This document shows positions 5,636 to 51,317 of a stretch of 64,000 nucleotides of DNA, piece by piece. Source of the DNA: Escherichia phage vB_EcoM_ESCO47; the sequence record OM386662.1; one strand, 5' to 3'. Under the pieces are notes generated by a model. It had not been told where the DNA came from. It saw nothing but the letters and a program-made list of their open reading frames with translations, and made no database searches. The position numbers and the translations under genes were made by a program. Each line of letters starts with the position of its first letter. The stretch's first letter is position 1.

Positions 5636-8600
5636 CTAATTTAACCTGTGGTGGATTCACGGGGTCTCTAGGATTTCCTACATTATCGATTAGTCTTTTC
5701 TCGACTAAATCTCTGAACTGAGCAAACGTAGTACCAGACGCATCGAATAATGGGCTCATCAGTTTACGACGTTCTGATGGTAATTGACCTTGGAAAATGG
5801 AGTTATCATTTTCTGCGTTGTAGTCGGCAGGTAAAGGATATTCCTGTCCAGCCATAGGACCTGCATCATATAATGCTTCGCCTGTAACAGGGTCGTATTC
5901 AACATTACCTTGAGGGTCCAATCTTGCCACCCGGTCAGCGTATTGCGTAGGTAATCCAGAATCCCACTTATAGTTTTTATATTTATTAATTATTGTTTCA
6001 ACATGTTTAAGCGTTAATCCAACGTTAATAAACATTGTCAAAAGAGTTATTGCGATGAAGCCAAATCCAACCGGATGAACAAAACGTAATACGTCAGATT
6101 TCCATCTAGACGAAGGCAGATTTGATTTAATCTTCATTACATAATAAGATCTACCACGATTTATGTAGTCTATATTGTTTTGAGATAATTCTTTACCTTT
6201 GATTCCACGAACGATCATACCGTCAAAGCTCGGAAGTCTTTCCGCTTTAACTTCTTGTCCCTCAATAAGACGACCTAAAAGGTTATGAATCGTTACAGTC
6301 CACTGCAATTTACCCTTAGAGTAGCTTCTTTCTAAATAAGTAACATTACAACGTCCTGTGGCCGTGAATATTGTCTGTCCTACTAAATCTTCTGTAATAG
6401 TGTCAGACTCAACAACAATATCATACTCGGTCCCAGAAGACGATTCTATTTCGACTTCAACGTCTTCATTATACAAAACTTTAAACAAGAATTTATATGA
6501 CGCTTCAGTTCCTTTTGTCGAATAGAAATCATAACTTCTTGACTCAAAGAATCGAGCCACCAAATCACGCTTTTCAGCATTAAGGTAAATATTTCGCTTA
6601 TAAATCTCAGACCATAAGTATTCCCATGCGTGTTCTTCACGTGGATACTGGTTTTTAATAAGATTTAACAGGTTGTTATAGTGGGTCCCATATCCATCTG
6701 ATAAGTATTGGATATATGCTTCACAGAACGCTTCAAAGTTTGAATTATCTAGCAAATACGATTCTGGCATCATAGTCGTGATCAAAGGACGTAAATCCGG
6801 ATCTGCAATACCGTTCTCTTCAACAGGATTCCATGGAGTTTCTCTTTCCTGATTTTGTAAAAATGCCAGTAAGAACGTTTCGGTAGGTTTCCAAATAATG
6901 GAAACGTTATCTCTTACACGATAACTAAAGTCGTAATAGGAAATAATCTCACCTGATGATTTATAGAAAATCATACCGGATGCATATTTTTTAAAGCCGG
7001 TGAAATCAATATTAGGCATAACGATAGTACAATCGCCATCATTCCAATATTCGTGTACTTTTCTATCCGGAGAAGACGCTGGTAAGTTTTCAACGGCCTT
7101 TGTATATAACAACTCAGAATAAATGACAACAGCCCTATCTGAGTTATTAATCCAACAACGGGTGTCAGACTTTCTTGAATAGTTAAAGAAAGGTTCTGCA
7201 TAGTATTTCATAGGTTGCGGACTAAATGATTCCCAACCGGACTCTTCTGTTGAAATGAATGCCATCATATGGTAATGCTTATCAGCAAGCCATTCTCGCG
7301 GGTATTCATATTTTACTGCGCCAAGAAGACCGTACTTTATTTGGGTGACCGGGTCATTAACAATATCAGATTCCAAGAATTTAAAATTGCTTGACGAAAT
7401 AAAGAGTTCGGTGCCATCTGTGGACATACTGGTGAATGCAGGTTCAATACGACGACGTTCTTCTTCAGTATTACCAAAGACTCTAGTAAATGTACCTGTG
7501 GAGTGGTCTAGTACGTAAACTCCTTTATCAACAGAATCAAGAATAGGATTTGTTCTAGGGTCGTCATTCACATTAGCAACTTCGCCAATAATCAATGCAA
7601 ACACCTTACCACCGATAGAATCCATTTTATAACAAACAGCTTTAGGATTACCTGTAATATTAAATGTTTCCGGCTCGAACAAACGCTCAGAATATGTCGG
7701 AGACAATGGGTCTGAATCAATAGGAGCATTACTCGTTCTAATAAAGCGAACTTTATCTCGAGCAGCAACATATACATAATCGTCGTTACAAACAATAGCT
7801 TCTGCGACACGAGATACGTTTGCAGGTAACGATGCATAGTTACCGAAGATTTCTACGTCAAAACCTAAATTCAATTGGTCGCCAATTTTAGCAAATGTTA
7901 CGTCTTGAGAACTAAATCGAACGTCATCAGACGACCAACGAACATCCGTCGATTTACGTCCATAAAATACTTTATCATAGCCGAGAACATAAGTTGTGTA
8001 ATCAGATTGATAATAAACTGTGCGAGATAATGGATATCCCACGCGGTCATTAAACAATTTAACGGCTTTCCATGTTTGGCCTTTGTCATTAGATACTTTA
8101 ACCACAGGCTGATAACGTTCAAACAAGTAAAGAATACCTTCAGATTCCATCAAATAAACACGATTAATATCTCGACAAACATGTTTAATGGACCCTTGAA
8201 TTTCATGGTACTCATTTTCACCAACGATAAAGTTTCTAATGGATGAAATATCAGCATAAGCCGGACTGAATTGGAACGATTCGTTCATCAATGCGGCCAT
8301 GATAGTGTCGTTATTAAAATCGACATAGGCATGGTTATTATTTGTAAATTTTTCACGAATAAAACTATTTGCCAACTGCATTTCAATCATATTTTGAAAT
8401 GTATAAGCGTTGGTTTGAAACGTTTCAAAAATTTCTGTTTGAACCCAGTCAGATTGAGTAAATCCTTCTGCTGCTGTTGCTACACGCATAGTATAAGACG
8501 TTAACGGGTCCAAGCCACTTTCAAAGTAGTTACTATTTGCTGTGTAGCCTAAATTAATCCAACGATAACTAGACTGGGGAATATCCTCCCCAGCGGCTGT

Positions 8601-17338: not shown

Positions 17339-17379
17339 GTTTACAATGTTATAGGGCTATGTTATAGTAGTCCTATCAA
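17339..17379 (+). promoter_or_regulatory. T4-type early promoter
   Basis: GTTTAC -35, ~17 bp, TGnTATAGT extended -10, conserved CCTATCAA start region. Confidence 0.55.
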
Positions 17380-19418: not shown

Positions 19419-19493
19419 GGCCCTTTAGCTCAATGGGAGAGCTGTCAGCTCATAACTGATAGGTAGCTGGATCGAAACCAGCAAGGGTCACCA
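19419..19493 (+). tRNA. tRNA with CAU anticodon (Met or lysidine-modified Ile)
   Basis: Manual cloverleaf: acceptor GGCCCTT/AAGGGTC, D-arm GCTC..GAGC, anticodon loop CTCATAA, T-stem GCTGG/CCAGC, 3' CCA encoded. Confidence 0.75.
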
Positions 19494-19497
19494 ATTT

Positions 19498-19569
19498 GGA
19501 TGCATAGCTCAGTGGTAGAGCAGTTGACTGTTAATCAATTGGTCCATGGTTCGAATCCATGTGTGTCCG
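19498..19569 (+). tRNA. tRNA-Asn (GUU anticodon)
   Basis: Manual cloverleaf: D-loop AGTGGTA, anticodon loop CTGTTAA, T-arm CATGG-TTCGAAT-CCATG; acceptor with G-U pairs; no encoded CCA. Confidence 0.7.
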
Positions 19570-19576
19570 CAAATTA

Positions 19577-19652
19577 CGAGGCATAGCTCAGAAGGAAGAG
19601 CAAGGACCTTCTAAGTCCTAGGTCGTAGGTTCGATCCCTACTGTCTCGACCA
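19577..19652 (+). tRNA. tRNA-Arg (UCU anticodon)
   Basis: Manual cloverleaf: acceptor CGAGGCA/TGTCTCG, anticodon loop CTTCTAA, T-loop TTCGATC, CCA encoded; T4 also carries tRNA-Arg(UCU). Confidence 0.75.
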
Positions 19653-19886: not shown

Positions 19887-20507
19887 ATGTATACCTTTAA
19901 TGAATTTTTAGCCGAAACGGAAGTAATCACCGAAGCCGGTGTACGTATGACAAAAGAGAAATGGCAAGCTGCTTACGACGCTATTTCTGGTACAAAAACT
20001 AGTACAGAGTTTTTCAAAAACGTTCAAGCCATGTACGGTATCGACACTTCCAGCCAAAAAGAATATTACAGAGCTTCTAAAGCATTCAAAGATATTGTTA
20101 GTGGTGGTGTTTCTGCTAAATCAGGTTCGCCTAAAGTAAAACCTGCTCCTACCATTCCTAAACCTGCGTCCCCTAAAGCAAAACCTGAGCCTAAGCCGGA
20201 AGTAAAAGCAACTCCTAAAGCTCCTGCTCTTAAGTTTGATACTTCTAGCCTGGAAAAAAAATATAAACAACTATCTTCGCTTGTTCGTGATATTGAATCT
20301 GATACATCTTCACTCGTTCGTGAATTCAATAGTCTTCGTAATGGCCAACATATCAACAACCTTGATACCCCAGACCTTTATCGTCTTTATTTGACTATCG
20401 AAGGTTTGAAGTACACTCAACCACTTCATGATGAGATTAAAGAAAAACTTCGTCAAGCAGGTCGTTTGGCTGCTGACGCTGCTCAGTATGCAAAAACTCG
20501 TAAGTAA
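19887..20507 (+). CDS. Hypothetical protein with CTS-like N-terminus and Pro/Lys-rich linker
   Basis: MYTFNEFLAETE resembles the capsid targeting sequence; KPAPTIPKPASPKAKPEPKPE linker; late promoter TATAAATA upstream. Confidence 0.55.
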   Translation: MYTFNEFLAETEVITEAGVRMTKEKWQAAYDAISGTKTSTEFFKNVQAMYGIDTSSQKEYYRASKAFKDIVSGGVSAKSGSPKVKPAPTIPKPASPKAKPEPKPEVKATPKAPALKFDTSSLEKKYKQLSSLVRDIESDTSSLVREFNSLRNGQHINNLDTPDLYRLYLTIEGLKYTQPLHDEIKEKLRQAGRLAADAAQYAKTRK

Positions 20508-20510
20508 AGA

Positions 20511-20530
20511 ATGGGGACTTCGGTCCCCAT
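20511..20530 (+). other. C(UUCG)G tetraloop RNA hairpin
   Basis: ATGGGGAC-TTCG-GTCCCCAT directly after stop codon of ORF 19887-20507. Confidence 0.6.
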
Positions 20531-20568
20531 TAGGGGTCTATAACTTACTGAAAAAGTTGTTTACTTCT

Positions 20569-20608
20569 TCCCTAGATGTGTTACTATAGACCTATCAACA
20601 ACATGAGG
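20569..20608 (+). promoter_or_regulatory. T4-type early promoter
   Basis: GTTTAC ... TGTTACTAT ... CCTATCAA. Confidence 0.55.
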
Positions 20609-20616
20609 AGAATATT

Positions 20617-20922
20617 ATGAGTCTTTACACTGAACTGAATAAAAAAACTGAAGAATCTGCTGAAACTATTTTTAAAAACGTGCAAAAGCGTATTTTAGAA
20701 AAGATGTATAACGCTGCAGCTAAAGGTGAAAAATCTTGTCGGTTTCCGATGAGGTGTTCTTCTGATTTATGCGCAAATACTATTGAATGGTTGGAAAGTG
20801 AAGGTCTTACGGTAGAGAAAAACCCGGCGACTTCTATTGATGGCGAATCATATATTAGTATTTCTTGGGATAAACCACGTATGAATGAAGGACACTACAA
20901 GTTGTTAAGTTGGAAAAATTAA
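20617..20922 (+). CDS. Hypothetical protein
   Basis: 101-aa ORF with GAGGAG RBS and own early promoter. Confidence 0.5.
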   Translation: MSLYTELNKKTEESAETIFKNVQKRILEKMYNAAAKGEKSCRFPMRCSSDLCANTIEWLESEGLTVEKNPATSIDGESYISISWDKPRMNEGHYKLLSWKN

Positions 20923-20931
20923 AAATAATGA

Positions 20932-20970
20932 TGTATAAACACCAATGATGGTGATACTATAGACTTATCA
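20932..20970 (+). promoter_or_regulatory. T4-type early promoter (variant -35)
   Basis: GTATAAAC ... TGATACTAT ... CTTATCAA. Confidence 0.4.
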
Positions 20971-20989
20971 ACTACAGAGGAGAAACAAA

Positions 20990-21217
20990 ATGGCTAAAGT
21001 TAGTATTGATGTCGTTGATTATGAATACACAGAAGAAGTTATTCGCAACCGTCACCCTGAAGTTCGTATCGATTCAGTACAAGATTCCAAGTTCTGGACA
21101 ACTGAGCTTAATCTGAGTGGTCCTTATGAAGCTGTTAAGAAGTTCATGGTTGAAGAATACTGCGAAGGAATGCACCCGGAAGACGCCAAGTTTTATGTCA
21201 ATTTGATTAAAAAATAA
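20990..21217 (+). CDS. Hypothetical protein
   Basis: 75-aa ORF with GAGGAG RBS. Confidence 0.5.
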   Translation: MAKVSIDVVDYEYTEEVIRNRHPEVRIDSVQDSKFWTTELNLSGPYEAVKKFMVEEYCEGMHPEDAKFYVNLIKK

Positions 21218-21252
21218 TTTACAAACTCTTGAGAGCAGAGTATAATGCTCTC
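21218..21252 (+). promoter_or_regulatory. Sigma70-type promoter with -10 embedded in a palindrome
   Basis: TTTACA-N17-TATAAT; inverted repeat GAGAGCA / TGCTCTC brackets the -10. Confidence 0.5.
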
Positions 21253-21287
21253 ATTGGATAATAAACCACCAATTGAAAGGTAATAAT

Positions 21288-21881
21288 ATGAACACACTGA
21301 AGAAACTTGTTGAATTCATCCGCACTAAACTGGGTACTGCTATGGCTAAAAATCTTACTGTCGAAGAACAGTATAACGCAGCTGCAGATAAGTTGATTAC
21401 CCAAATCAAAGAACTAAAAACGGCTTCTGTTAAATCTATTAATGAAGAAAAACGTATTCGCGAACTTGTTAATGAAAAGAACAAGCAAGCCGCTTCTAAG
21501 GAACGTGAAATTCGTAAGCTCCTGGCTGAAGGACAGGATGTTACCATGCATGCTAAGCTTGGTCTTCTGTATCGTCGAACTGCCGAACAACTTAATACAA
21601 AAGCTGATGGGTATGCCGCTATGCGAATTGAAATTGCTCGTAAGGTGGTTGAACTTGACGATGCTCGTCAGAATCTGGCAATCAAACTCGAATACATTCG
21701 TGAAACTCGAGCAGCCAATGCCCTTGGTATCTCTACGGCTGATGATGTAATTGAAATCGCTGCACTGACTAAGGTTGATATCGAAGACACTCTGACTCGT
21801 GTTGAAACGTTCAATGGCTCTCCAGCTGGTGTCGAAACCACTTCTGCTGATGTACAAGAATATATTAACTCTTTGAAATAA
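21288..21881 (+). CDS. Hypothetical coiled-coil protein
   Basis: Start set at MNTLKK with GAAAGG RBS; long predicted helical/coiled-coil region. Confidence 0.5.
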
Positions 21882-21889
21882 AATAATAC

Positions 21890-21911
21890 GGAGGACTCCG
21901 GTCCTCCTTTT
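21890..21911 (+). terminator. Intrinsic terminator
   Basis: GGAGGAC-TCCG-GTCCTCC followed by TTTT. Confidence 0.65.
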
Positions 21912-21930
21912 GGATAATAAAGGAGTTAAC

Positions 21931-22533
21931 ATGCGAAACCAAAATAATGATATTGACTCAATGTTCGAAGAGTTCCGAGATAAGGTAAATCCACCTACGT
22001 CTTTAGTTGATTCATTACGATATGTTGCAACCGGACGTAAATGGTACTGGTCGTCTTCTTATGAGACCACCGAGAAAACGGCTAGCCATAGCAGAAAATC
22101 TTTATTAGCCCCAGGTATTATGATTCATGATATCGGAGCTATTGCTAAACTAGTTGCAGACCATGATATTAGATTCACTGATTTCGTTGCTCCTACGTGG
22201 TCTGTTTGTTGTTTAAACACTGAATGGGAATATATCAGCGAACGCTCTGAAGATTATTATGGTTTTAGAGATAAGCTTCTGAGGTCTAATATGTTTTATA
22301 TCGATACAGAAGTTCTAGTCGATAATAAAAAATATTACTTTACGTTAATCATCGATTCTGAAACTATGTATGAAGGCAAGCCTTTGCTTAAAAGAGTTGA
22401 TGCTTTAAGTGCTATTGATGCGCTTTATGAAACTATGGTTGTTAGTCCTAATTTCACTAACAATTTAATCCTTGAGCAATTTATTATGGAATGTAGAGAA
22501 TATGTCAAAGCCAACCCTGTACATGCCAATTAA
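21931..22533 (+). CDS. Hypothetical protein
   Basis: Start set at MRNQNND after AAGGAG RBS; follows terminator hairpin. Confidence 0.5.
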   Translation: MRNQNNDIDSMFEEFRDKVNPPTSLVDSLRYVATGRKWYWSSSYETTEKTASHSRKSLLAPGIMIHDIGAIAKLVADHDIRFTDFVAPTWSVCCLNTEWEYISERSEDYYGFRDKLLRSNMFYIDTEVLVDNKKYYFTLIIDSETMYEGKPLLKRVDALSAIDALYETMVVSPNFTNNLILEQFIMECREYVKANPVHAN

Positions 22534-22897
22534 GCCCTGGGCATATGAATACAAGCGTAAATTAATCCCAAATGAAGTACTATTTGGCCCTATTTTAGCT
22601 TTAGCATTTTTAATCTTTATGATTATAGGAGCCGTTTTAGATTCTAGTGAAGTTATATCGTCTGATGCAGCATTTTCATTAATGTTCGTCGCACCACTTA
22701 TTGTACCGTTTTTATTAATGCCTATTAACTGGATGGGATATTGGTACCAAGGACGTCATCACAGAGCCAGATTAAGAGAATGGAAAGTTCAGTGCGCAAA
22801 AGCCCAAGCTCAGTATGATGAAGCTGTTAAAAAATACGAATACAATGAAGCCATGGAATTCGTTAAGGAAATAAGATGCAAAAGCCTCAACTCTTAA
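22502..22897 (+). CDS. Small membrane protein, FIKECR-tail family
   Basis: Start MSKPTLYMP after conserved junction GGAATGTAGAGAATATG; two TM segments; C-terminal EFVKEIRCK. Confidence 0.45.
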   Translation: MSKPTLYMPIKPWAYEYKRKLIPNEVLFGPILALAFLIFMIIGAVLDSSEVISSDAAFSLMFVAPLIVPFLLMPINWMGYWYQGRHHRARLREWKVQCAKAQAQYDEAVKKYEYNEAMEFVKEIRCKSLNS

Positions 22898-23235
22898 CCG
22901 TATGGCCTTCTCTTGGTGAGAACATTCTAATTTTTATTATGAGTATTGGCATGGGATTTGCCTTTGGATTAGTTGGATTTCTTATTGACAGCGTTGTGTT
23001 AGGATTTATAGGGAACACTGGTGGATTCACAGACCAATGGCAGGACTTACGGTATACCCAAGCCTTTGCATCCATCGCATCATTTTGTACTGTAGTCTAT
23101 TTTTACTACGATTTTATAAACCACAACAAGAAAAATAAAAAGGTTTACGCTTCTCAAATGATTAGTTATAATGAACTCCTAGCTAGACGTGAAAATGAAA
23201 CAATCGAAAACTTTATTAAGGAATGTAGAAAATGA
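22876..23235 (+). CDS. Small membrane protein, FIKECR-tail family
   Basis: AAGGA RBS; TM segments; ends ENFIKECRK. Confidence 0.5.
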   Translation: MQKPQLLTVWPSLGENILIFIMSIGMGFAFGLVGFLIDSVVLGFIGNTGGFTDQWQDLRYTQAFASIASFCTVVYFYYDFINHNKKNKKVYASQMISYNELLARRENETIENFIKECRK

Positions 23236-23537
23236 GTAAGATTATTGAAATTAAAGTACCAGAGTTTAATGATGCCAAATCCGCTTCAGATGCAATTTAT
23301 AAACTTCTGAATCAAGCTGAACGTATCGAAGAAGAAGCAACAAAGATCGCAGACCAATATGCCGTATCATTTTCTGTAGGTGATTATGGTAGCGGTCGTA
23401 CTTATTATCCTAAGGGTGAAATCGTATCCCAGTGGATGAAAAATGAAATTGAAAATAATGGTGGCGATGTTAAGCGTGAAGGTAATGGTTACGTTATTAC
23501 TGAAGGTGCTTGGGTTTCGTCTTCTGCGTTGTGCTAA
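23232..23537 (+). CDS. Hypothetical protein, GWVSSSxxC-tail paralog 1
   Basis: ATGA coupling; C-terminus GAWVSSSALC shared with the next two genes. Confidence 0.5.
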   Translation: MSKIIEIKVPEFNDAKSASDAIYKLLNQAERIEEEATKIADQYAVSFSVGDYGSGRTYYPKGEIVSQWMKNEIENNGGDVKREGNGYVITEGAWVSSSALC

Positions 23538-23546
23538 GGAATCACT

Positions 23547-23819
23547 ATGTCTAAAGAACAAACCGAACTGGCTGAAGCTGTAGCAAAAATCTATGCATCT
23601 ATTGAGGCAGCCAAAGAAATTGCTGATAAACAAAACACCACGTTTAATTTGTATCCGGCATATGGTATGGGCGGAACCTATCATTCACCAGGTTATCTTA
23701 AAGCCGACCTTGAACATCATACTAAACATGGTAACCCTGAATGGGCTGACGTTTACCAATATGACTACAACCTGAGCCTTGAAGATGGCGGTTGGGTTGC
23801 ATCTTCTCACACTTGCTAA
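23547..23819 (+). CDS. Hypothetical protein, GWVSSSxxC-tail paralog 2
   Basis: AAGGA RBS; C-terminus GGWVASSHTC. Confidence 0.5.
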   Translation: MSKEQTELAEAVAKIYASIEAAKEIADKQNTTFNLYPAYGMGGTYHSPGYLKADLEHHTKHGNPEWADVYQYDYNLSLEDGGWVASSHTC

Positions 23820-23828
23820 GGAAACCAT

Positions 23829-24026
23829 ATGTCTCGTGAATTAGATTGTGCTGTACGTACGGCAGTAGCTGCTCTGGAAAACCTGTTCCAAATTGCAACA
23901 GAAGAACGCGAAGAAGTTACATTATGGATTGAAGATAACGCAGGTCTGAATCTCCAGGACGCGATTTCATTATCCCACAATAGTATTACTGTTCAAGGCT
24001 GGGTATCATCTAGTTATTCTTGCTAA
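23829..24026 (+). CDS. Hypothetical protein, GWVSSSxxC-tail paralog 3
   Basis: AAGGA RBS; C-terminus QGWVSSSYSC. Confidence 0.5.
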   Translation: MSRELDCAVRTAVAALENLFQIATEEREEVTLWIEDNAGLNLQDAISLSHNSITVQGWVSSSYSC

Positions 24027-24030
24027 AACA

Positions 24031-24072
24031 GTTTACAACAAGATAGGGCTATGTTATAGTAGTCCTATCAAA
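24031..24072 (+). promoter_or_regulatory. T4-type early promoter
   Basis: GTTTAC ... TGTTATAGT ... CCTATCAA. Confidence 0.55.
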
Positions 24073-25322: not shown

Positions 25323-25363
25323 GTTTACAACATGATAGGACTATGTTATAGTAGTCCTATTAA
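25323..25363 (+). promoter_or_regulatory. T4-type early promoter
   Basis: GTTTAC ... TGTTATAGT ... CCTATTAA. Confidence 0.55.
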
Positions 25364-31324: not shown

Positions 31325-31783
31325 ATGACAATCAATTCAGAAGTTTTCATTCGTCGCAACAAACTCCGTCGAATCTTCGAATCGGAGTTCCGTCAAATCA
31401 ACGCCGATATCAAGAACTCTGCAAAAGCTCTTGGTATCACAGGCTTTCATATCAAGTATTCTCAACATCTTTTAGATCGTGCTATTCAACGTGAAATCGA
31501 TGAGAACTACGTTTTTGAATTATTCCGTAAAGTAAAAAATCATGTTAAAGAAGTTGCAGAATTTTTATCAATGCCAGCACGTCCTGATGTTGACGAAGAT
31601 TTTGTCGAAGGAGTTGAGTATCGTCCAGGACGTTTAGAAATAACCGATGGAAATCTTTGGTTAGGACTTACTGTCTGTCGAGAAAATCCTGCATTTGAAA
31701 TGAAAACTCTCCAATGCAGAATGGCTATTATCAATAGCAAACGACTACCTGGAAAAGCTTCAAAAGCAGTGATTAAAATCTAG
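31325..31783 (+). CDS. regB: Endoribonuclease RegB
   Basis: MTINSEVFIRRNKLRRIFESEFRQIN...RMAIINSKRLPGKASKAVIKI matches recalled T4 RegB; own early promoter. Confidence 0.9.
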   Translation: MTINSEVFIRRNKLRRIFESEFRQINADIKNSAKALGITGFHIKYSQHLLDRAIQREIDENYVFELFRKVKNHVKEVAEFLSMPARPDVDEDFVEGVEYRPGRLEITDGNLWLGLTVCRENPAFEMKTLQCRMAIINSKRLPGKASKAVIKI

Positions 31784-34933: not shown

Positions 34934-34974
34934 GTTTACATCTCGGTAAAATGGTGTTATAGTAGTCCTATCAA
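34934..34974 (+). promoter_or_regulatory. T4-type early promoter
   Basis: GTTTAC ... TGTTATAGT ... CCTATCAA. Confidence 0.55.
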
Positions 34975-34991
34975 ATAAAGAGGAGAACAAA

Positions 34992-39142: not shown

Positions 39143-39182
39143 GTTTACAAGGTCTATGGTTATGTTATTATAGACCTATCAA
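39143..39182 (+). promoter_or_regulatory. T4-type early promoter
   Basis: GTTTAC ... TGTTATTAT ... CCTATCAA. Confidence 0.55.
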
Positions 39183-40763: not shown

Positions 40764-40821
40764 TGTACAACCAAGGACGGATGGAGTATAATCATTCTAT
40801 CTTAACCAAGAGGAGAACATT

Positions 40822-49036: not shown

Positions 49037-49233
49037 ACACTGAAAATATTGTGTCATGGCAACTTCGTGAAGAACGCGCCGAATTCTTTGCCAACATGAA
49101 ACTCAACGGTGTTGAGGACGAAGACTTTTTACGCTGGTTCTGGATTTACAAATATAAAGAATGCCAACATGCCGTGCTATTGACTTGCGCAGTTATGTAC
49201 GAAGGCTGGAAAGGTGCCAAAAAGTTCGGATAA
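49033..49233 (+). CDS. Hypothetical protein
   Basis: ATGA-coupled start MNTENIV. Confidence 0.4.
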   Translation: MNTENIVSWQLREERAEFFANMKLNGVEDEDFLRWFWIYKYKECQHAVLLTCAVMYEGWKGAKKFG

Positions 49234-49236
49234 CGA

Positions 49237-49271
49237 TTTACAAACTCTTGGGAGTAGAGTATAATACTCCC
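49237..49271 (+). promoter_or_regulatory. Sigma70-type promoter with -10 embedded in a palindrome (second copy)
   Basis: TTTACA-N17-TATAAT; inverted repeat GGGAGTA / TACTCCC with compensatory changes relative to copy at 21218. Confidence 0.5.
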
Positions 49272-49308
49272 AATGGATAATAAAATTTTAATTACCGAGG
49301 AAATTGAT

Positions 49309-51266: not shown

Positions 51267-51293
51267 AAGGAAGCACTAGTGCTTCCTTTTTTT
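51267..51293 (+). terminator. Intrinsic terminator
   Basis: AGGAAGCAC-TA-GTGCTTCCT palindrome followed by TTTTTTT. Confidence 0.7.
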
Positions 51294-51317
51294 GCTTTCT
51301 ATACGGGATGATAGAAT
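51291..51317 (+). promoter_or_regulatory. MotA-dependent middle promoter candidate (genes 47/46)
   Basis: TTTGCTTTC, 12 bp, -10 TAGAAT; directly after terminator. Confidence 0.45.

Follow-up and report, generated by a model that had tools for sequence, protein, structure and literature searches.

Promoter/stem-loop cassettes adjoined by RegB-type sites between early genes of a Mosigvirus, Escherichia phage vB_EcoM_ESCO47

Comparison with PeSL cassettes and other described systems

The 'promoter-early stem-loop' (PeSL) cassettes of T4-type phages (Arbiol et al. 2010, PMC2839356; Comeau et al. 2014, PMC4122927) are the closest described relatives of two elements, here called copy 1 and copy 2, located in a 64,000 nt stretch of Escherichia phage vB_EcoM_ESCO47 (sequence record OM386662.1; the whole stretch is referred to as the window). 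[quoted passage not shown] The stem-loop is commonly placed between the -35 and -10 hexamers or over the -10 (PMC2839356). G-T pairs have been noted within the stems, and the promoter consensus for T4/PST is TTTACW-N17-TAYWAT (PMC2839356, PMC4122927). For the PeSLs of RB49 and phi1, promoter activity, terminator-like activity (of one RB49 stem-loop) and recombination between copies have been reported; PeSLs occur in many copies per genome, with a preference for regions of small non-essential early genes, and are associated with indels (PMC2839356, PMC4122927). Neither of these papers mentions covariation, RegB or RB69-type phages.

The window phage is T4-like and belongs to the genus Mosigvirus (RB69/HX01 group). 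Its copies 1 and 2 resemble PeSLs in being intergenic between co-directional genes, in the order of stop codon, promoter, stem-loop and Shine-Dalgarno sequence, in a stem-loop that overlaps the -10, and in promoters that fit TTTACW-N17-TAYWAT. The element is also repeated, as phage PhAPEC2, the complete genome of which is syntenic across the whole window, has four copies of the promoter family and 43 early-type promoters on its early strand. Judged by this layout, copies 1 and 2 are PeSL-type cassettes of the -10-overlapping subclass, in a Mosigvirus. Two differences are apparent. PeSLs have been described in RB49/phi1, PST/T4 and nt-1/KVP40 rather than in RB69/Mosigvirus, with polyG/polyC stems in RB49; and the PeSL papers call the stem-loop a terminator, whereas the window family has a RegB-type site where the T-run would be. 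For annotation, the sites should be labelled as early promoter/stem-loop (PeSL-type) cassettes with a RegB site, not as novel riboregulators or operators. Their parts are as follows.

21218–21246, + strand: copy 1 early promoter, with the -35 TTTACA at 21218–21223, an N17 spacer and the -10 TATAAT at 21241–21246
21230–21253, + strand: copy 1 hairpin, TGAGAGCA (21230–21237) paired with TGCTCTCA (21246–21253), loop GAGTATAA, 8 bp
21256–21266, + strand: copy 1 RegB/S1-type site GGATAATAAAC, starting 2 nt past the stem
49237–49265, + strand: copy 2 early promoter, with the -35 TTTACA at 49237–49242 and the -10 TATAAT at 49260–49265
49248–49273, + strand: copy 2 hairpin, TTGGGAGTA (49248–49256) paired with TACTCCCAA (49265–49273), loop GAGTATAA, 9 bp
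49275–49285, + strand: copy 2 RegB/S1-type site GGATAATAAAA, tail GGATAATAAAATTTTAA

An earlier note on this DNA had placed TTTACA-N17-TATAAT at 21218 and 49237, and both coordinates and letters match. The inverted repeat that it saw around the -10 is also present, with stems one to two pairs longer than it gave (8 and 9 bp). In both copies, five bases of the -10 (TATAA) lie in the 8 nt loop, the RNA form of which is GAGUAUAA, and the 3' arm begins with the final T of this hexamer; the 5' arm coincides with the promoter spacer and the 3' arm with the discriminator region. The copies are identical at 43 of 48 bases. Two internal differences in the 5' arm, A>G and C>T, are each matched in the 3' arm, so that the compensation claimed in the earlier note is confirmed at both positions, and a third stem difference, T>A at 49273, gives copy 2 its ninth pair. 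Folded as RNA, copy 1 reaches -13.8 kcal/mol (z -4.1) and copy 2 -14.6 kcal/mol (z -3.8 to -4.1), and no shuffled sequence out of 200 was as stable as either hairpin. When up to one mismatch is allowed, TTTACA-N17-TATAAT has 12 matches in the window, all on the + strand, against 1.56 expected.

Counting the usual 7 nt or so from the -10 places the predicted start of copy 1 transcription at about A21253. The base at the predicted start, the last of the 3' arm, is a purine in 20 of 24 aligned copies. With a start at this position the promoter's own transcript would lack the hairpin, which would be confined to RNA reading through from upstream. Such hairpin-bearing read-through RNA is expected, since the upstream open reading frames (ORFs) stop 0–3 nt before the -35 and no terminator was found between them and the promoter in a terminator scan. 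In copy 1, AUUGG (21253–21257), at the predicted 5' end of the promoter's transcript, is complementary to CCAAU (21269–21273). A 5 bp stem formed by the two would take up the GG of the RegB site in its pairing and hold the A-rich tail in its loop; it is kept in the copy 1 orthologs from IMG/VR, is absent in copy 2, and could modulate RegB access or protect the 5' end.

Two further systems share parts of this arrangement. In the bacterial promoter-coupled terminators (Fletcher et al. 2026 preprint, 10.64898/2026.08.19.745784), a terminator-type hairpin and the next promoter likewise share DNA between tandem genes. However, the stem-loop DNA there provides the -35, with the T-tract in the spacer and the -10 downstream of the hairpin, whereas in the window cassettes the -10 is within the loop and the 3' arm ends at the predicted start site. 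Late-promoter-in-hairpin control in T4 (gene e, soc and others; PMC3014915) also places a promoter inside a hairpin-coding region; long upstream transcripts fold the hairpin and internal-promoter transcripts lack the 5' arm (PMC3014915). Unlike at those genes, the Shine-Dalgarno sequence of copies 1 and 2 is located 20–30 nt past the stem and outside the hairpin, which excludes a hairpin masking the ribosome-binding site as in T4 gene e.

Paired variation within the stem

The two window copies alone are insufficient as proof of selection on structure; the additional copies are what point to it. A BLAST search with the 61 nt module matched 761 phage records, typically at up to four places per Mosigvirus genome and at one place in T4-type genomes; the four PhAPEC2 copies are upstream of ndd.1, pseT.1, e.6 and 55.2. 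Divergent copies were taken from T4, SP18, Yersinia phage P8, PinkRuby, Klebsiella phage PhiKpNIH-6 and Edwardsiella phage PEi20. IMG/VR was scanned with the pattern ACAAACTCNTGNNNNNNGAGTATAAT, in which six inner 5'-arm positions and the entire 3' arm are unconstrained, yielding 35 matches; the strict pattern TTTACAAACTCTTN10GTATAAT had 0 matches in IMG/VR. After dereplication, the ACAAACTCNTGNNNNNNGAGTATAAT scan and the whole-module BLAST provided 31 distinct sequences from six or more genera of T4-like phages; they span Mosigvirus, Tequatrovirus (T4), Gaprivervirus, Kanagawavirus, Marfavirus, Yersinia phages and IMG/VR contigs. The flanks of these 31 copies are almost invariant and the stem interior falls into about a dozen haplotypes, among them the following (5' arm / 3' arm).

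TGAGAGCA / TGCTCTCA
TGGGAGTA / TACTCCCA
TGGGACCA / TGGTCCCG
TGGGGTCA / TGACCCCA
TGAGGACA / TGTCCTCC
TGAGAGAT / TTCTCTCG

Covariation was counted formally in an alignment of 24 distinct 40 nt sequences, with shuffled 3' letters (500 shuffles) as the null. Stem cells were paired at 96.9 % compared with 84.4 % in the shuffles, and the covariation score was 0.511 compared with 0.247; in neither case did any of the 500 shuffles reach the observed value. When the 3' partners were slid by 1–3 columns, pairing was only 37–55 %. Changes on both sides are evident at four of the eight stem pairs, and the pair formed by columns 18 and 31 shows six standard pair types. That the stem pairing is under selection is well supported by this alignment. 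The earlier note had proposed selection on structure rather than on a fixed protein-binding sequence and named further copies as the place to look for a refutation; the dozen or so paired haplotypes and the 24-sequence count support the proposal, the flanks being conserved and the stem interior varying in paired fashion. The copies are nevertheless kin by descent and probably also by gene conversion, and because they are related and have exchanged alleles between loci, the cell counts overstate the number of independent events. PhAPEC2 carries the copy 1 stem at the copy 2 locus, which indicates that alleles move between paralogous loci, and PinkRuby carries the copy 2 stem of the window. The difference between copies 1 and 2 within the window may thus be an imported allele and not a compensation that arose in place.

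These exchanges, together with the 43 shared bases of the window copies, are what could be cited for a promoter with a chance palindrome that was recently duplicated or gene-converted, with no structure being selected. This explanation is barely credible given that pairing is held through many haplotypes across genera and falls to 37–55 % in the slid registers. Further evidence comes from early promoters at large. A scan for T4-type early promoters found 43 on the early strand of PhAPEC2 and 6 on the other strand, and 17 and 3, respectively, in the window. As a null, the 5' half of each promoter was joined to the 3' half of another and stems bracketing the -10 were counted. At least 8 Watson-Crick pairs surround the -10 in 6 of the 43 PhAPEC2 promoters (14 %) but in only 0.6 % of the chimeras; for promoter-like sites in the window, at least 7 pairs (G·U allowed) are found in 9 of 18 (50 %) compared with 8 % of chimeras. 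The covariation count and the chimera comparison refute the absence of a selected structure.

A palindrome centred on the -10 is also the classic position for a repressor site, and the inverted repeat could in principle be an operator at which a dimeric DNA-binding protein regulates early promoters. About a dozen half-site sequences with mirrored changes at one position are too varied for a single protein, the spacer between the arms is asymmetric, and wobble is tolerated on one strand only. A protein operator is rejected on account of the mirrored stem variants and largely refuted by the covariation count, and is accordingly regarded as very improbable.

Whether selection acts on RNA or on DNA can be approached through the pairs that are not Watson-Crick. 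The 248 stem cells of the 31 unique copies comprise 221 Watson-Crick pairs, 21 G·T pairs on the sense strand, 1 A·C pair and 5 others; five kinds of wobble pair, at four positions of the stem, make up the G·T cells. When a transition disrupts Watson-Crick pairing, G·T and A·C are a priori equally likely products, and each G·T is a C·A on the opposite strand. The 21:1 asymmetry therefore favours a structure that involves only the sense strand, for which an RNA hairpin tolerant of G·U is the simplest candidate, although a C>T bias on the non-template strand could have inflated the G·T excess; it is unlikely that such a bias alone generated a ratio of 21:1. An RNA hairpin of read-through transcripts is favoured as the selected structure over a cruciform or the site of a duplex-binding protein. 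Of the two structures offered in the earlier note, the hairpin in read-through RNA is thus retained and the DNA cruciform disfavoured. Explicit evidence from covariation for selection of PeSL-type stem-loops as RNA seems not to have been given before; the sense-strand G·U asymmetry is the key observation in it. Conservation of the spacer and discriminator of early promoters, which is known and unexplained, would be at least partly due to RNA pairing.

A structure at the DNA level is considered improbable, whether it be a cruciform or single-strand hairpin by which melting or shut-off of the promoter is tuned, or one cut by a structure-specific nuclease so as to make the cassette a recombination hot spot. 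The palindrome can fold as DNA on either strand (-7.2 to -7.4 kcal/mol), PeSLs recombine and form mini-circles (PMC2839356), and two indel junctions between the window and PhAPEC2 lie exactly on early-promoter repeats. At the promoter repeat at 34935, the flanking alignments overlap by 35 nt and PhAPEC2 has 680 bp extra; at the promoter at 40764–40792 (TGTACAaccaaggacggatggagTATAAT), the overlap is 27 nt and PhAPEC2 has 993 bp extra. PhAPEC2 contains two copies of the TGTACAaccaaggacggatggagTATAAT promoter (50917 and 49897) around an extra gene, where the window contains one, and on this alignment the 40764 junction looks like the published PeSL-type signature, in which excision or insertion of a cassette has taken place between promoter repeats. 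However, such junctions require sequence homology only, and both are at promoters without good stems, while no synteny break between the window and PhAPEC2 is present at copy 1 or copy 2. A stem of 8 bp with an 8 nt loop is also a poor candidate for cruciform extrusion. Finally, a cruciform pairs both strands and its bottom strand would hold C·A wherever the top strand holds G·T, against the observed 21 G·T to 1 A·C.

The RegB-type site and the 3' end of the upstream mRNA

The target of RegB/S1 is 11 nt of single-stranded RNA, GGAGRAYARAA, with GGAGAAUAAAA as the T4 optimum; GGA is invariant, position 4 is G or U, and C is not found at positions 5, 6 and 9 (PMC1702504). GGAU is accepted only before a strict A-rich tail, and of 30 intergenic GGAU sequences tested in T4 only those of orf 55.2 and motB.2 were cut, the orf 55.2 site being cleaved by RegB in vivo (PMC1702504). 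The motB RNA, with GGAG and the tail UAUAAAA, is a model RegB substrate, and the T4 motB promoter gives a primer-extension stop in vivo (PMC1702504). One GGAU site of RB69 has been reported as cleaved.

In both window copies GGATAATAAA starts 1–2 nt beyond the stem. The earlier note had recorded this sequence after both copies and after the hairpin at 21890, and the exact 10-mer indeed occurs three times in the window (21256, 21912 and 49275, against 0.35 expected), always on the + strand and 1–4 nt 3' of a hairpin. With one mismatch allowed it is not enriched in the window (16 against 10.5 expected), and only the exact 10-mer in its hairpin context is therefore informative. This tail, left uninterpreted in the earlier note, is explained as a RegB/S1 site, with cleavage in the window phage predicted from homology to the T4 sites. 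The window also encodes RegB.

21256: GGATAATAAAC, tail matching 6/7 of GGAGRAYARAA, with U at position 4
49275: GGATAATAAAA, tail 7/7
21912: GGATAATAAAG, tail 6/7
31325–31783, + strand: regB (PF10715, E = 1e-68, full-length match), endoribonuclease predicted to cut GGA(U/G)-A-rich sites

All 31 family copies have GGA(G/T) starting 1–2 nt past the stem. Tails with at least 6/7 consensus matches follow in 24 of 31, compared with 3 % of the 751 GGA[GT] sites on the early strand of PhAPEC2. Genome-wide in PhAPEC2, a hairpin lies no more than 6 nt upstream of 4 of 23 RegB-like sites and 10 of 728 other GGA[GT] sites (odds ratio 15, Fisher p = 5e-4). The tail of the RegB site is unpaired 3' of the hairpin in the minimum free energy (MFE) and centroid folds of copies 1 and 2; in the MFE fold the first two G's of the site lengthen the stem by a marginal 2 bp, an addition not seen in the copy 1 centroid. 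Pairing of the loop UAUAAU with AUUAUA tails as a pseudoknot was considered and dropped, as it fits the GGAUUAUAAA variants only and neither window copy.

The T4 sites at motB and orf 55.2 are the counterparts of the window sites, having GGA followed by G or U and an A-rich tail. The T4 member of the promoter-hairpin family is the motB leader, TTTACAAACTCTTGGGACCAGAGTATAATGGTCCCG-T-GGAGTATAAAA, with the RegB site GGAGUAUAAAA; the classic RegB model substrate is thus the tail of a PeSL-type cassette. In the T4 55.2 leader, TTGGATAATAAAATTTTAA (cleaved GGAU site UUGGAUAAUAAAAUUUUAA) comes after a UUCG-tetraloop hairpin that lacks a promoter, and the tail there, GGATAATAAAATTTTAA, is also the tail of window copy 2. 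At the same 55.3/55.2 junction, T4 (NC_000866 40785–40860, minus strand) has the promoter-less hairpin and the window (49237–49291) a promoter-containing one, which suggests gain or loss of promoters within a pre-existing hairpin-RegB module. Most published T4 RegB/S1 sites are Shine-Dalgarno sequences, whereas those of the window family are at the very start of the leader, right behind the hairpin. A recurrent hairpin 1–2 nt 5' of a RegB site appears undescribed in the literature searched. At the T4 motB.2 early promoter (NC_000866 ~8161–8225, minus strand; GTTTAC-N17-TACTAT), a stem also surrounds the -10, TGTGGT-actataac-ACCATA, with 5 Watson-Crick pairs and 1 G·T. The published RegB-cleaved GGAU of motB.2 (GGATAATAAAATG) is its Shine-Dalgarno sequence, 12 nt beyond the stem.

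A promoter-less relative is likewise present within the window, in front of a GGAG Shine-Dalgarno sequence (21922–21925) and an ATG (21931).

21890–21922, + strand: promoter-less relative, GGAGGAC-tccg-GTCCTCC (21890–21907), TTTT and GGATAATAAAG (21912–21922)

Its stem has the same sequence as the promoter-bearing stems of the PEi20 and PhiKpNIH-6 copies. The hairpin at 21890–21911 is called an intrinsic terminator (hairpin and U-run) by the terminator scan, and its PhAPEC2 ortholog is annotated as a terminator. Hairpins of this promoter-less sort, the one at window 21890 and that of the T4 55.2 leader, carry T-runs and are called terminators; they are part of the case for the original PeSL model, in which the hairpin is an intrinsic terminator or attenuator of upstream transcription and promoter and terminator share one intergenic cassette. 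The other part is an RB49 PeSL stem-loop that cut lacZ expression as much as rrnB T1 (PMC2839356). For the promoter-bearing family, however, this model is unlikely. None of the 31 copies has a terminator-grade T-run (1–4 T, mostly 3, in the 8 nt past the stem), the scan calls neither copy 1 nor copy 2, and the conserved element past the stem is GGA(U/G) and A-rich. An 8 bp stem with an 8 nt AU-rich loop is, moreover, weaker than typical terminators. A canonical intrinsic terminator is rejected for copies 1 and 2, the T-run being absent.

A terminator-like hairpin is also seen at window 51268–51317, where GGAAGCACTAGTGCTTCC and a T-run are followed by TGCTTTC-N12-TAGAAT, resembling a MotA-box middle promoter. 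There, GGATGATAGAA has a RegB-type score of 7/7 and overlaps both the TAGAAT -10 and the start of the next ORF; the arrangement is found twice in PhAPEC2 (39619 and 5514).

The reading that is judged probable is an early promoter superimposed on a hairpin of read-through RNA, with a RegB site immediately 3', together punctuating neighbouring early mRNAs. A strong sigma-70-type early promoter would start its transcript at about the last base of the 3' arm, and upstream read-through RNA would fold the 8–9 bp hairpin, with selection acting on the RNA pairing. RegB would cut GG^A(U/G) 1–2 nt past the stem and leave the upstream cistron with a terminal hairpin and a 3–4 nt overhang. An end of this kind is a poor substrate for PNPase and RNase II, and the hairpin-capped upstream 3' end would resist 3' exonucleases. 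RegB leaves a 3'-phosphate and a 5'-OH, and host 3' exonucleases attack the 3' ends that it makes; T4 polynucleotide kinase turns 5'-OH fragments into substrates of RNase E/G (PMC3014915). The 5'-OH of the downstream piece, once acted on by the kinase, would be open to RNase E/G decay, and in the promoter's own transcript this RegB cut, at about +5, would take away the triphosphate end. Where the promoter is missing (window 21890, T4 55.2), an identical upstream end would arise through T-run termination or a RegB cut. The cassette would then be a punctuation that uncouples the fates of adjoining early mRNAs; the capping role would also leave room for some attenuation of read-through by the hairpin and for recombination at the repeat. 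This offers a testable hypothesis on how early polycistronic transcripts are partitioned.

Besides the kinship of the copies and the possible mutational bias described above, several points weigh against this reading. The start site, the RegB cut and the 3'-end capping or insulating role in the window phage are all predictions from sequence. GGAU is inferior to GGAG as a RegB substrate and most intergenic GGAU sequences of T4 are resistant (PMC1702504). The hairpin is not needed for cleavage, because RegB requires nothing 5' of GGAG. In a second family of hairpin promoters in the window (listed below), no RegB site adjoins the stem, so that the hairpin must have a RegB-independent role. In addition, the 3'-arm sequence (AGNCCTATCAAA) occurs without a complementary 5' arm at window 34935 and at PhAPEC2 57360, 162456 and 54037, and part of the 3'-arm conservation must therefore serve the promoter itself.

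A broader and more tentative proposal is that the hairpin and its GGA(U/G)-A-rich tail form a dedicated mRNA punctuation module of T-even phages, with promoters repeatedly built into or lost from the loop; this is possible but less likely than not to hold in full. It draws on the presence of promoter-bearing and promoter-less versions at orthologous positions in different phages, T4 55.2 and window 21890 being without a promoter and copy 2 having one at the locus of T4 55.2. If true, RegB would gain a constructive processing role beside its known destructive one, and the conservation of PeSL stem-loops without terminator T-runs would be explained.

Other early promoters and genomic setting

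Stems bracketing the -10 are not limited to the family of copies 1 and 2. A second family, TTTACA-N17-TATAGT, has three copies in the window and a third stem type, TTTACA-N16-TATTAT, has one.

17340–17376, + strand: second family, ATAGGGCTA (17351–17359) paired with TAGTCCTAT (17368–17376), one G·T
24032–24068, + strand: second family, ATAGGGCTA (24043–24051) paired with TAGTCCTAT (24060–24068)
25324–25360, + strand: second family, ATAGGACTA (25335–25343) paired with TAGTCCTAT (25352–25360), perfect 9 bp stem
39144–39177, + strand: third stem type, AGGTCTAT (39150–39157) paired with ATAGACCT (39170–39177), 12 nt loop

The second family has the same hairpin/promoter geometry as copies 1 and 2, with an A-T to G-C exchange at the outer pair and wobbles on the sense strand. 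A stem-less relative is found at window 34935–34985, where TTTACA-N17-TATAGT is combined with the second-family 3' arm TAGTCCTATCAAA and a spacer, tctcggtaaaatggtgt, that is not complementary to it. PhAPEC2 162456, 162134 and 54037 (minus strand) share TATTATAGACCTATCAA with window 39144 and have a MotA-box-like tGCTTcA in the spacer and no complementary arm. Judging from these sequences, the same spacer seems to serve alternatively for an early/middle hybrid promoter or for a hairpin promoter.

Both cassettes occupy short gaps that separate co-directional early genes, as follows.

21215–21217: TAA stop of the frd.3-like ORF (PF05798, 1.3e-38), abutting the copy 1 -35
21288: ATG of the e.6-like ORF, downstream of copy 1
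49231–49233: stop of the 55.3-like ORF, upstream of copy 2 (name from the PhAPEC2 annotation)
49309: ATG of the 55.2-like ORF, downstream of copy 2 (name from the PhAPEC2 annotation)

The region at 20000–24000 of the window has 96–97 % identity to Shigella phage JK42, NHEP11, S143_2 and others. An Rfam scan of the whole window at the gathering threshold returned three tRNAs only, with no curated family at either cassette. The three tRNA genes (RF00005, 58–72 bits) are clustered at window 19419–19649 on the + strand and correspond to the Arg/Asx/Met tRNA cluster annotated in PhAPEC2.

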